Part shown: one piece after another, positions 4,728 through 59,659 of the stretch
Numbering within the stretch: position 1 is the first letter of the stretch
How the letters are laid out: each line of letters opens with the position of its first letter
Source of the DNA: Eledone cirrhosa
Lineage: Eukaryota
Assembly (NCBI GenBank): GCA_964016885.1
Contig: OZ024745.1
Location: forward strand, 83,080,001 to 83,144,000
Length of the DNA: 64,000 bases
Direction: 5' to 3'
Notes under the pieces: model-generated
The model's database searches: none
Told to the model about the DNA's origin: nothing
Seen by the model: only the letters and a program-made list of their open reading frames with translations
Position numbers and translations under genes: made by a program

Positions 4728-4936
4728 TTTTTTTCAAAGAAATTTTTTGATAATCATAAAAGTTTAAATTTTGGGCACAAGGCCCCAATCTTTTTGGGTG
4801 TCCTTTTCGGAAAACAATGTATGTGCGCTTATATATGGTTAACAATAAAAATGTTCAATAAATGGCAATTTTTAACAAACGGAAATAACAGACCTTTGCG
4901 GAGCTCACGATGATACGATTTACTACGTCGGTCGCC

Positions 4937-4983
4937 AATAATAATAATAATAATAATAATAATAATAATAATAATAATAATAA
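4937..4983. repeat. (TAA)n tract between Tx1 A and Dong-like copy 1
   Basis: Direct reading. Similar tracts at 6559-6586, 10132-10155, 13760-13781, 15115-15136, 15235-15257, 15458-15484 (TTA), 19167-19186 and 20366-20379. Confidence 0.98.
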
Positions 4984-6558
4984 GCAACGTTCACCAGAGG
5001 AAAGCTGCTGAAAAGTTCAGACATTAATCTTGATCGGGGGAATGTGATAAGAGAACTTGATCAAGAGGAAACTTACAGATATCTAGGTGTTTGTGAAGGA
5101 GACGGAATCAAGCACTCGACAATGAGGGAAAGGATAAGGAAGGAATGTTACCGCAGAATAAAAGCAATCTTAAGAACGGAATTGAATGCAAGGAATAGGA
5201 TCGATGCCATAAACACGCTTGCCATACCAGTAGTAACCTACAGTTACAATGTCATCAACTGGTCCAGCACAGAGATCCGTAGGCTCGATACAAAAATTAT
5301 AAAATTCTTAACCATGCACAGAATGCATCACCCGAAGGCAGATACAGATAGAATATATCTCCCTAGGAAAGAAGGAGGATGTGTGTTAATCCAGTTAGAC
5401 ATTGCATTGAAAACTGCAACAATTGAATTATCTACATATCTAAGGGAATCACATGATTGGATGATCAAACTCGTTTTGAAACACGAAAGCATCAAAAGAT
5501 CATACTCCATTACAAAAGATGCACAAAGATACAGTAATGGACTACAAATTTCAGAAGTCCCATTACTGCTGAAATGGAAAACACAGAAAAAGCAAAGCAG
5601 GTAAAAGTAACTGCAAAGAAAGAACTGCTACAGAAACTGGCTAAGAAATGGCAAGAAAAGCCTCTGTATGGAAAATACCCAGAACGAGCTAACAATCCTG
5701 ATGTTGACAAAACTTTAACCCATCAGTGGTTGGCATCCTCTGGACTGAAATCGGAGACTGAAGGACTGATTATATCAGCACAAGATCAGTGTCTGCCAAC
5801 AAAAAGTTACCAAGCCAACATATTAAAAAATGGATGCAGCCCATTATGCCGTGTATGCAAAAAACAACCATAGACCATTGACCATATAATTTCAATGTGC
5901 AGTCCTATAGCTCCAACCGAATACCTAAACAGGCATGACAGAGCTGCACAATACATACATTAGATAATGTGTAAGCATTTTGACCTGCCCCATCAAAAGA
6001 ATTGGTGGGAGCATCAACCACCTCCCATACTTGAAAAAGATCACATCTCAATCTTGTGGAACTTTAGCATCCAAACAGACCGAAAAATAGATGCAAAGAG
6101 ACCTGATATAATATTGAAGGACTTTAAAAAGAGGGTATGTTGCTAATTGATATGTCCGTTCCAATAGACAAGAATGTATCTATAAAAACATTTGAAAAAT
6201 TGAGCAAGTATAAGGACCTGGAGATAGAAATTGGAAAAAATGTGGAAATTGAGAACTAAAACAATACCAGTGGTTGTAGGCGCTCTAGGAATGATACCTA
6301 AGGGGTCTAATGATTACTTATCGCAAATCCCAGGAAACCCACGTATAGAAGAAATACAAAAGATAGTACTAATGGGAACTGCCCATATACTAAGGAAGAT
6401 TCTGTCAATATAAGTACATCACAAATCTAAACACCTAAAGATGCACGTGTGAATATGTATGTTCTTTCTTGAACATGGCGGACCTTGTTGTCTCTTGAGG
6501 TCACTGGTTGTGACTTGGTGATAACTCGTATGAACATAAAGCAAGATAAATGCAGCTG
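4984..6558 (+). mobile_element. R4/Dong-like (RLE) non-LTR retrotransposon, 5'-truncated, disrupted
   Basis: YRYLG, AINTLAIPVVTYS, HPKADTDRIYLPRKEGG, GLKSETEGLIISAQDQ, CRVC zinc finger, RHD, RPD, IPVVVGALG..IQKIVLMGTAHILRKIL; ends in (TAA)n. Confidence 0.9.
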
Positions 6559-6586
6559 TAATAATAATAATAATAATAATAATAAT

Positions 6587-57224: not shown

Positions 57225-58938
57225 ACGTAGTTAAGAAAGCCACAACAATGCAGAGGGAAATCTCGAGGTAGGAAGTGAATGATAGATAGGAGAAATAGGA
57301 TAAAGTGAAAATTGAGAGAGACAAAGATGAAAACAAAACAAAGGTAGAAGGGTTACCGTAGTGGAGATTTAATCCCAATATTTCGGGCTCACGCCCATCA
57401 ACGGGGGAAAATTCCGAAAGGGGGGAACAGGCTAAGCGGAGAAAGTTGTGATGTCGTTAAAACAGGAATGCCGTTATGGGGAGAAAAATTATTTAAAATT
57501 TAAATGAGGGAAAGAATGCGCGTGCGCGTGATAGGCTGTGGCAAAAGCTACTGACCAAATAGGTTAAATCAAGAGGGTGCGCTAGCGTGTGAAAGCCGTA
57601 AAATATGTGTGTGTAAATATATATGTGCGTGTAACTGTGTGTGTATATGTGTAAGTGTGTATATGTGTGAGTGTGTGTGTGTGTGAAAGATAGTGGGCTG
57701 TAGAAGCTGGAAATCAAAGGGTGTGAAAGGTGGTAGGTTGTAAAACATGTGTGCGTGTATAAATATAGATGTGTGTGTGTAAGCGTATGGGTATACATGT
57801 GTTTGTAACTGTGTGTGTATATGTGTGAGTGCGTGTGTGTGTGAAAGATAGTGGGCTATAGAAGCTGGAAATCAAAGGGTGTGAAAGGTGGTAGGTTGTA
57901 AAAACATGTGTGCGTGTATAAATATAGATGTGTGTGTGTATGCGTATGGGTATGCATATACGTGTGTGTGTGTGAAAATAGCAGGCCGTAAGGGCTGCGA
58001 ATGGTCACTATGGTTAAGTTAGCCATGTCAGCTCATTTCTCTCAGCCCGGTTGTTAAGTGGGGGTCTGAGGTTCTTAATAACAAGTGCTTCCTTTATCCT
58101 TAAGGATCCGATGCTGCGTTCAGTCGCTAGGACTGTGACCAAGGGTCTACCCTGTGGGTTTCCGCATTTAAGGATGTGTTTACGGAAGGAAGATGCGTTG
58201 GTGTTGATATGTTCCTTGATACGAACATGTAGGGGTCGGATGGTGCTACCTATGTAAAACTTGTTACATTTATCGCATTGAATCTTATATACGACATAGG
58301 TGCGTAGGCAATCTGCCCCCCGTATCGGGCAGTTGCTGAGGGAACACGTCCCATCTGACTCGTCGAGTTTGTTGGAGAGGCATCTTCGCAGCGAAGGTCC
58401 TGTGTGGGCCAAATGTATGTCAAGTCCCTCCGTCCGTATGGCCCTGCGGATGGCGTTCGTGGTATATTCACTCAGGTGGGGGATTTTAAAGAAGCACCTG
58501 CTTTTATTTAAGTTTCTAGTGGGTGTCTGTCTATTGGGTCTGGGGTCTCTAATTCCGTTAATCAGTCGCTTGGGATATCCATTAGACCTGAGTAGATTAC
58601 GGAATTGCGTGGTATGGGTGAGACCACCCATCGGGTCGCTGCATCTGTTAGTGATCCGTGTCAGTTCATTTAGGACATAGCCTCTCTTAGCGTTGTTGGG
58701 GAGGGCTGAGTTGTAATGCACAAATAAGTCCTTGCACGCTGCTTTGCGGTAGAAGGTGGTGTTTATGTCTCCTTCTTCCGAGATGTTGATACGGAAGTCG
58801 AGGAGGGCGAGTGACCCGTCTTCTCCTGGGTGTTCCATGGTGAAATCGACGTGATGGTCAGTATCGTTGAAGATTTGGTGAATTTCATTCGCCATCTCCC
58901 GGGAAGAAGTAAGTATCAGGATGTCGATACTTACTTCT
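57225..58938 (-). mobile_element. 5'-truncated Penelope/Poseidon-like element
   Basis: ORF 58014-58925; 3' UTR with a ~170-bp tandem duplication (57630-57957) and a degenerate hammerhead (57373-57408); (TA)n on both sides. Confidence 0.88.
58014..58925 (-). pseudogene. PLE RT thumb + GIY-YIG endonuclease (open but 5'-truncated)
   Basis: FTME..LALLD..YRK, LRSNGYP, VVYKIQCDKCNKFYIGSTIRPLHVRIKEH, KEAL.I..PPLN. Confidence 0.9.
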
Positions 58939-58940
58939 GA

Positions 58941-59585
58941 TATATATAAATGTAGATATATATAAATGTATATATATATACAAATATATATATAAATGTA
59001 TATATATATAAATGTATATATTTATACAAATGTATATATATATGTATATATATATAAATGCATATATATACATATATATATATATATATAAATGCATATA
59101 TATATAAATGTATATATATATACATAGATATACATATATATATATATACATATATATATATATATATATATATATATATATATATATACATATATATAGA
59201 TATATATATATACATATATATATACATATATATATATATATATACATATATATATATATATATATATACATATATATATATATATATATACATATATATA
59301 TATATATACATATATATATATATATATATACATATATATATATATACATATATATATATATATATTTACATATATATATATATATATATACATATATATA
59401 CATATATATATACATATATATATATATATATATATATACATATATATACATATATATATATATACATATATATATACACACACATATATATATATATATA
59501 TATATATATATATATATATATATATATATATATATATACAAATATTTATATATATATATATATATATATATATATATATATATAT
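58941..59585. repeat. Long imperfect (TA)n tract
   Basis: Direct reading. Other large tracts at 22125-22180, 22950-23275, 39020-39530, 46261-46380, 56140-56606, 56958-57220 and 61100-61295. Confidence 0.98.
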
Positions 59586-59659
59586 GTTTCTTTTATTTGC
59601 CACAAGGGCATCAATAGATTTATAAATATACACGGGTGTGTATGATTGTGTATAGAAGC

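Follow-up and report, generated by a model that had tools for sequence, protein, structure and literature searches.

What moves the very abundant short interspersed element (SINE) of the octopod Eledone cirrhosa, and how is its RNA recognised? The question arises at a 64,000-nucleotide stretch of contig OZ024745.1 (assembly GCA_964016885.1, positions 83,080,001 to 83,144,000, forward strand; "the window"), in which an initial annotation saw one 3' tail motif on four different elements, among them a Tx1 long interspersed element (LINE) and a SINE, and proposed that the Tx1 protein drives the SINE by recognising it. The five tail and leader strings behind this proposal are each present at the position given; the four elements resolve, rather, into one SINE and a clan of Tx1-type LINEs with at least six tail variants. 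Analysis of these elements in the window and in the genome (3.0 Gb) indicates that the ORF2 protein of Tx1 probably mobilises the SINE, and probably does so in a hairpin-dependent manner; the alpha and beta families, which end in (ATT)n, are its likeliest drivers. The family names alpha to zeta and CR1a-d were coined in this analysis.

The LINE copies in the window are broken, and intact ORF1 and ORF2 were found elsewhere, at loci L298 and L296, in 6-kb head-to-tail arrays. At L298 the ORF1 frame is of 713 amino acids (aa) and the ORF2 frame of 1195 aa with matches to PF03372, PF00078 and PF13966; its APE endonuclease, reverse transcriptase (RT) and C-terminal zinc finger make up the layout of the L1/Tx1 group. 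ORF2 scores 329 bits against Xenopus Tx1 and 180 bits against human L1 ORF2p, which is its best solved structural relative, and among named organisms Argonauta hians has the protein closest to that of the LINE, at 69% identity. The RT sequences were placed in a tree of 23 rows, where a branch with 99/99 support contains Xenopus Tx1 and four families, apart from CR1, RTE and R4; these four families and Argonauta group together within that L1/Tx1 branch, again at 99/99, without support for a sister position to Xenopus Tx1, and the octopod group, with relatives of 40% identity (100/100), stands in a polytomy with the Xenopus Tx1 branch, in a tree that is without L1 proper. On this RT placement within the L1/Tx1 branch we classify the families, from their sequence, as Tx1-type. 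The labels Dong, RTE, CR1 and Ingi for other LINEs are those that we presume from protein motifs, with the RT tree as sole check.

To count the motif we composed, after it had been seen, a composite search pattern of a paired stem, a 5-base loop, a fixed spacing to a purine run and a microsatellite. It found 60 matches in 600 kb (60 evenly spaced segments of 10 kb), comprising 48 SINE copies, 12 Tx1-type tails and none elsewhere, and two matches altogether in 20 shuffles. Exact patterns, whose counts are lower bounds, found 123,857 tails of the young SINE genome-wide, 7,811 of Tx1-alpha, 1,871 of Tx1-beta and 5,617 of gamma and delta together, with 1,744 for delta alone; the backwards control gave 0 in every case. 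With its length of about 186 nt, its at least 123,857 copies, the presence of 5'-truncated copies and an end in a simple repeat, the SINE has the attributes of that class. The best 30 alpha and the best 30 beta matches all terminate in the motif, which the query itself contained. Starting from the C-terminus of ORF2, a tail within three substitutions was present in 216 of the 226 matches (46-100% identity), and the motif is in this sense conserved among Tx1 copies; the figure overstates tail conservation, because of redundancy among the loci, most of which were retrieved by way of the tail. Among distant relatives on metagenome contigs (mostly 21-33% identity), no such tail was present in the 15 of 73 loci inspected, and RNA data sets searched with Tx1 ORF2 listed no carrier; four sequencing runs likewise yielded nothing that bears on the hairpin.

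The fragment at 59586, previously taken to be unrelated, proved to be a stub of about 27 nt (59586..59612, minus strand) of a third Tx1 family, delta, adjoining a TA microsatellite: Tx1 ORF2 lies upstream in 18 of the 20 loci with this tail, the other two being short truncated copies. We rejected the idea that the motif is host target DNA instead of the end of an element, as each family has its own version and the 3' flanks differ. In delta, epsilon and zeta (L121-L140, L312, L313, L321) the hairpin is kept and a 4-base microsatellite stands next to it, which we read from the sequences as a target switch within the Tx1 clan.

The annotation spoke of a sequence tag. A shared 3' tag is indeed there, but on the evidence of folding and of pair changes a small hairpin describes it better than a linear sequence does. 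Minimum free energy (MFE) folding predicts the same apical stem of 3-4 bp and 5-base loop in the young SINE end and in all six Tx1 tails. The loop is near-fixed, its middle base varying in delta. Of the stem pairs the closing one does not vary; the second reads C-G in Tx1 and G-C in the SINE, and at the third alpha has A-U where all others have G-C. Across six family rows 22 of the 24 cells pair, and three of the four pairs change on both sides, which 7 of 500 shuffles reach; one of these two-sided changes is the SINE's own C-G to G-C swap. Three Watson-Crick stem types accommodate 404 of 436 distinct motif sites, and between old and young SINE subfamilies stem, loop and spacing are constant while the spacer sequence varies. 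The SINE and the Tx1 tails have in common, then, a conserved stem-loop with compensatory changes, as stringent LINE-SINE pairs do, on few independent rows and with a weak fold.

When the three SINE ends were scored against LINE ends, the six Tx1 tails gave 19-32.5 (shuffle p 0.0002-0.028), and eight of nine other LINE ends gave 8.5-17.5 (p 0.03-0.97). Overall, therefore, the Tx1 tails beat the nine other ends, some of which were located in one copy only; the scored set did not extend to the I-like family L470. No other clade among those scored fits the SINE tail better. The shared 3' terminal sequence is about 25 nt long and keeps the same register relative to the terminal repeat. Genome-wide, the SINE tail is preceded by three bases that are not those of the SINE at 301 sites. 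Of these we inspected 30, and found 26 to be SINEs by pattern, one by eye, and three with unrelated upstream DNA, one of the three consisting of the tail alone, with a duplication of 15 bp. Since 27 of the 30 are still SINEs, it is unlikely that an abundant LINE carries exactly the SINE tail; there may be a LINE with a diverged form of it. The (ATT)n repeat by itself is not diagnostic, because the CR1-like family CR1a ends in it too, and for the same reason we rejected it as proof of the partnership; (ATT)n serves as target as well as tail. Two other candidate partners were rejected: CR1a, which has a different hairpin, no ATTAT target and no duplications, and the Dong-like LINEs, which insert in the opposite orientation and have no tail match. 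A young CR1-like family (L175-L204) has an open frame of 945-957 aa in many copies, 8,793 exact tails, and its own hairpin and (ATT)n end.

Insertion sites were compared at the 5' junctions, in a tally that omits copies longer than the flank or rearranged (40/58 alpha, 39/57 beta, 7/14 gamma, 15/20 delta and 14/29 CR1a). ATTAT was present within 25 nt of the junction in 12/18 alpha and 14/18 beta copies (26/36 together, a target-sequence preference as in Tx1), in 2/7 gamma, 0/5 delta, 35/54 SINE and 0/15 CR1a copies, over a background of 4.5%; the comparison of SINE with CR1a gives p 3e-6, and that of SINE with Tx1 p 0.5. Target duplications of 9-26 bp, starting at ATTAT, bound 27 of the 54 SINE copies; the base before the start is C in 14 of them, T in 8 and A in 5, these five all belonging to tandem SINEs. 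Tx1 duplications are mostly masked by repeats: among 25 loci picked for a short tract 11 were resolvable, and three of these have duplications, of 14, 17 and 18 bp, which agree with those of the SINE in their start and in the base before it. In CR1a there was one duplication in 15 copies, within a tandem repeat. Duplications of 7-20 bp and a nick at a pyrimidine-purine step are traits of L1-type insertion.

Divergence from consensus, in sets all chosen by exact tail matches, had a median of 2.9% (0.6-7.3) for alpha, 2.5% (0.6-5.5) for beta, 1.8% for delta, 10.3% for gamma (mixed subfamilies), 4.7% (1.2-12.2) for the SINE and 5.7% for CR1a. By this measure the activity of the SINE overlaps in age with that of alpha and beta. 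Each is also inserted at the tail of the other: a SINE start stands behind 16 of 192 Tx1 tails and a Tx1 5' end behind 5 of 104 SINE tails. Target sites and periods of activity, where a mismatch between SINE and LINE might have appeared, do overlap: the SINE and Tx1 alpha/beta share the ATTAT target and their ages overlap, an insertion signature and an overlap of activity as in a stringent pair, from which the tract-length preference departs.

These observations are consistent with a mechanism in which the ORF2 protein would bind the stem of 3-4 bp and its 5-base loop, together with the purine run about 10 nt downstream. Its endonuclease would cut at the left edge of ATTAT, nicking a T-purine step of the bottom strand; the AUU repeat of the RNA would anneal to the freed DNA end and prime reverse transcription; and cleavage of the second strand some 9-20 bp away would generate the target duplication. 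The SINE would gain entry by mimicking the end of the Tx1 RNA.

One of the strings seen at the outset lies at the other end of the LINE. The match at 4762-4784 is real, as a string, yet it belongs to no 3' end: it is part of a hairpin-like motif (4762..4787, minus strand) in the 5' untranslated region (UTR) of an alpha subfamily, some 35 nt ahead of ORF1, with a second copy near 9957-9982, and the hairpin is absent from the MFE fold. Related leader hairpins with pair changes stand at a similar place in type-I alpha and in gamma, not in the beta and delta leaders examined. The leader hairpin could have arisen by capture of a tail, could have given rise to the SINE tail, or could serve the same protein as another site of binding. 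We rejected the type-II leader, which carries the motif, as the 5' end of beta, which has its own; type II joins alpha ORF2. Several different modules of 5' leader and ORF1 occur among the Tx1 families (L298, L303, L315, L307, L308, L313, L321), and alpha ORF2 was found with two of them, which suggests swapping of 5' modules.

Several results weigh against Tx1 as the hairpin-dependent mobiliser. The hairpin is open to doubt on three counts: the fold is weak (z-scores -0.8 to -1.7), 50/143 young and 32/34 old SINEs lack the fourth pair, and the covariation count rests on six related rows from which the structure was also read. The shared stretch, only about 25 nt at 55-70% identity, is short against the roughly 50-80 nt of classical pairs (PMC3472496, in the passages covered). 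A genome-wide search for a Tx1 family with the stem orientation of the SINE gave four matches, all of them SINEs, and the young SINE tail attains its top raw score against the type-II 5' leader of Tx1 (34.5), above any 3' tail (at most 31). The ninth of the other LINE ends, that of the CR1-like CR1c, scores 15.5-24 (p 0.002-0.16), and small p values do not identify the partner, because a CR1-like end also reaches p 0.002; CR1c differs in its 4-base loop, another terminal repeat and TA flanks. At the insertion sites 7 of the 11 resolvable Tx1 copies lack a duplication, and one more is doubtful; three or more ATT units stand at 17/36 Tx1 and 6/54 SINE 5' junctions (p 2e-4), so that the targets are similar, not identical, a difference that could stem from a longer AUU run in the RNA of Tx1. 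The ages of CR1a overlap as well, and age overlap does not single out Tx1. Finally, the sampling of LINE families is incomplete. That Tx1 drives the SINE through a 3' tag, the core of the initial annotation, is supported by tail similarity, covariation, target, duplications and ages, and is weakened by the short match and the limited LINE sampling.

The weakness of the hairpin is among the points that would favour movement of the SINE by Tx1 through the AUU repeat and target pairing alone, the hairpin being a passenger or an element of RNA 3' end formation or stability. The Tx1 hairpin directly precedes a polyadenylation-like A-rich hexamer that is missing in the SINE, and Tx1-Mar has been proposed to move the poly(A)-ended SINEU without a shared tail (PMC4494074, in the passages covered). 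We consider this unlikely: a SINE of Pol III type needs no Pol II 3' processing, yet its subfamilies keep stem, loop and spacing; and CR1a RNA is also AUU-ended, yet CR1a shows neither the target (0/15) nor the duplications (1/15), which argues that the repeat alone does not bring about Tx1-type insertion. The incomplete sampling leaves room for a different mobiliser, another LINE family that is unsampled or extinct, with the likeness to Tx1 due to convergence or old ancestry. Only nine non-Tx1 ends were scored, a similar stem occurs in one CR1-like end, the tract-length preference differs, and the active LINE families listed for Octopus vulgaris include 13 of CR1, 13 of RTE, 5 of Dong and 2 of Hero (PMC13282606, in the part covered). 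Such a partner seems to us improbable, as the 600 kb held no carrier of the motif other than SINE and Tx1, the tail matches without the preceding bases of the SINE were SINEs in 27 of 30 cases, the CR1-like end differs in its loop (4 bases), its terminal repeat and its flanks (TA), and the Dong-like elements insert oppositely. Very improbable, in our judgement, is derivation of the SINE tail from the Tx1 leader hairpin, or of the leader from the tail, which would make their likeness uninformative on the mobilising protein. The young SINE tail does match the type-II leader best, and Tx1 5' ends often lie directly behind SINE or Tx1 tails, so that capture is possible; but one older SINE scores as high or higher against 3' tails (32.5 versus 30), the spacing to the microsatellite and the target signature agree with the 3' tails, and such an origin is compatible with mobilisation by Tx1.

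In the window itself, nested retroelements are piled up over bases 1-20,400, and SINE copies stand at 15.1-15.5, 33.0-35.4 and 47.4-48.0 kb. The pile begins with a Tx1-alpha copy (1..4936, minus) with type-II 5' leader and ORF1, matching full-length copies at 85-97% in blastn and RT in Pfam; it has an internal deletion near 2861 and a broken ORF2, and continues past the left end. The (ATT)n tract at 4937..4981 is both the rest of the upstream Tx1 tail and the insertion site of the next Tx1 5' end. Into this tail a 5'-truncated Dong/R4-like LINE (4982..6559, plus) is inserted in opposite orientation to Tx1. A second alpha copy (6587..10131, minus), with deletions and a small inversion (7369-7568), has its 3' tail at 6587..6611, where the hairpin (6599-6611, loop 6603-6607) is followed by an A-rich spacer. 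Next is a broken beta copy (10156..13759, minus) with its tail at 10156..10179, in which a private change breaks the closing pair; the paired base is present in about 27 of 29 other beta copies (by eye, nearly all). A 5'-truncated alpha copy (14751..15116, minus) sits at the (ATT)n tail of a SINE, its own tail split by an RTE-like fragment (about 13791-14750, in the region 13782-14760) with an inverted 5' part and a short duplication, part of the hairpin being lost. Three truncated SINE copies follow (15136..15457, two minus and one plus), all of them with the motif and (ATT)n at their ends, with a Tx1 leader at 15485 after the plus copy, and then a second beta copy that has lost its 3' tail (15633..19160, minus). 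An inverted block at 15259-15630, of SINE tail, (ATT)n and Tx1 leader, is joined to the beta 3' UTR, possibly by twin priming on a read-through transcript. Dong/R4-like LINEs occur in opposite orientation in Tx1 (ATT)n tails twice in the window (4982-6559 and 19187-20365) and in 34 of 192 Tx1 tails genome-wide; three element types therefore compete for one microsatellite.

The SINE is represented in full length by a young copy of about 186 nt (32982..33167, plus), with a head containing A- and B-box-like stretches, a body, a hairpin at 33143-33155 (loop 33147-33151) and a target duplication of about 13-18 bp, and by a copy at 47837..48021 (minus) with a duplication of about 19 bp. Further copies at 33417..33753 (plus) include an older subfamily with a different spacer and the same hairpin; two tandem copies (34205..34586, plus) are each bounded by the same duplicated target, and a 3' stub of 50 nt lies at 35303..35352 (minus). 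The earlier description as a tRNA-SINE is not confirmed: the box-like stretches, about 53 nt apart, are recognisable by eye against what we take to be the A/B-box consensus, and neither ARAGORN nor Rfam found a tRNA match in the copies tested. We presume a likeness to the octopus CORE-SINEs OR1/OR2, of which the SINE may be a relative. The head of one SINE copy (47930-48021, minus) forms a long rod on folding (z -3.7), a tendency weaker in two other copies. A second SINE family has an Rfam tRNA-like match (L100:4602-4804, 5730-5793) in a TA-flanked inverted pair. Elsewhere in the window are Penelope-like RT/GIY-YIG elements (51696-55700 and 58014-59021, the GIY-YIG match being weak) and long inverted repeats about 10 kb apart (44724-45733 and 55151-56168).

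The literature is cited throughout from the passages covered in each source. There the partnership is less unusual than had been suggested, since both a SINE moved by Tx1, SINEU (PMC4494074), and stringent L1-clade LINEs of plants and a green alga (PMC3472496) have been published. Mobilisation of the crocodilian SINEU by Tx1-Mar was inferred from target preference and overlapping ages, much as a Tx1-type LINE is inferred here from shared target and age; SINEU differs in its U1/U2 snRNA heads, poly(A) tails and Mariner target, and no shared 3' hairpin appears in those passages (PMC4494074), whereas the octopod elements have a microsatellite seed and a shared tail. The stringent L1-clade pairs, LINE1-1_ZM with ZmSINE2/3 in monocots and L1-1_CR with SINEX-3_CR in Chlamydomonas, resemble ours in a conserved 3' hairpin, loop, compensating stem and 3' flank common to LINE and SINE, and differ in poly(A) ends and 50-80 nt of shared sequence (PMC3472496, PMC3747384), against about 25 nt and microsatellite ends in an animal Tx1-type LINE. 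Fish Kibi and Koshi are likewise Tx1-clade APE elements of simple repeats, with TC and TTC targets in place of ATT and a 4-base repeat, and with no partner SINE mentioned in those passages (PMC4494074, PMC3812793). OR1 and OR2 are tRNA-derived octopus CORE-SINEs (Ohshima and Okada 1994, as cited in PMC4824008 and PMC4758252). The covered parts of PMC13282606, PMC4758252, PMC4824008, PMC3531059, PMC5786205 and PMC10294476 name no Tx1 partner for an octopus SINE, and we found none assigned in the literature; repeat databases (Repbase, Dfam, SINEBase), the 1994 paper and supplements lay outside this search, and an earlier assignment is possible there. For a specific SINE partnership via a tail hairpin in the Tx1 group of animals we found no earlier report.

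Whether ancestral L1-clade elements recognised a specific RNA end or poly(A) only is an open question, for which the stringent examples given are plant and algal (PMC3472496, PMC3747384). We put at about even the chance that an animal Tx1-type lineage practises stringent recognition of a 3-bp hairpin, keeps it across microsatellite switches and drives a very abundant octopod SINE with it, the look-alike in the leader perhaps being a second binding site. The question becomes directly testable with an animal case of Tx1 type in which ORF2 is intact, the tag is 25 nt long and compensatory variants occur naturally. SINEs make up 11.6% of the O. vulgaris genome and are mostly unclassified among recent insertions (PMC13282606, in the part covered). 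Mobilisation by Tx1, if true, would name the engine of a very abundant cephalopod SINE, and would account for the nested piles of Tx1, SINE and Dong elements at (ATT)n tracts.

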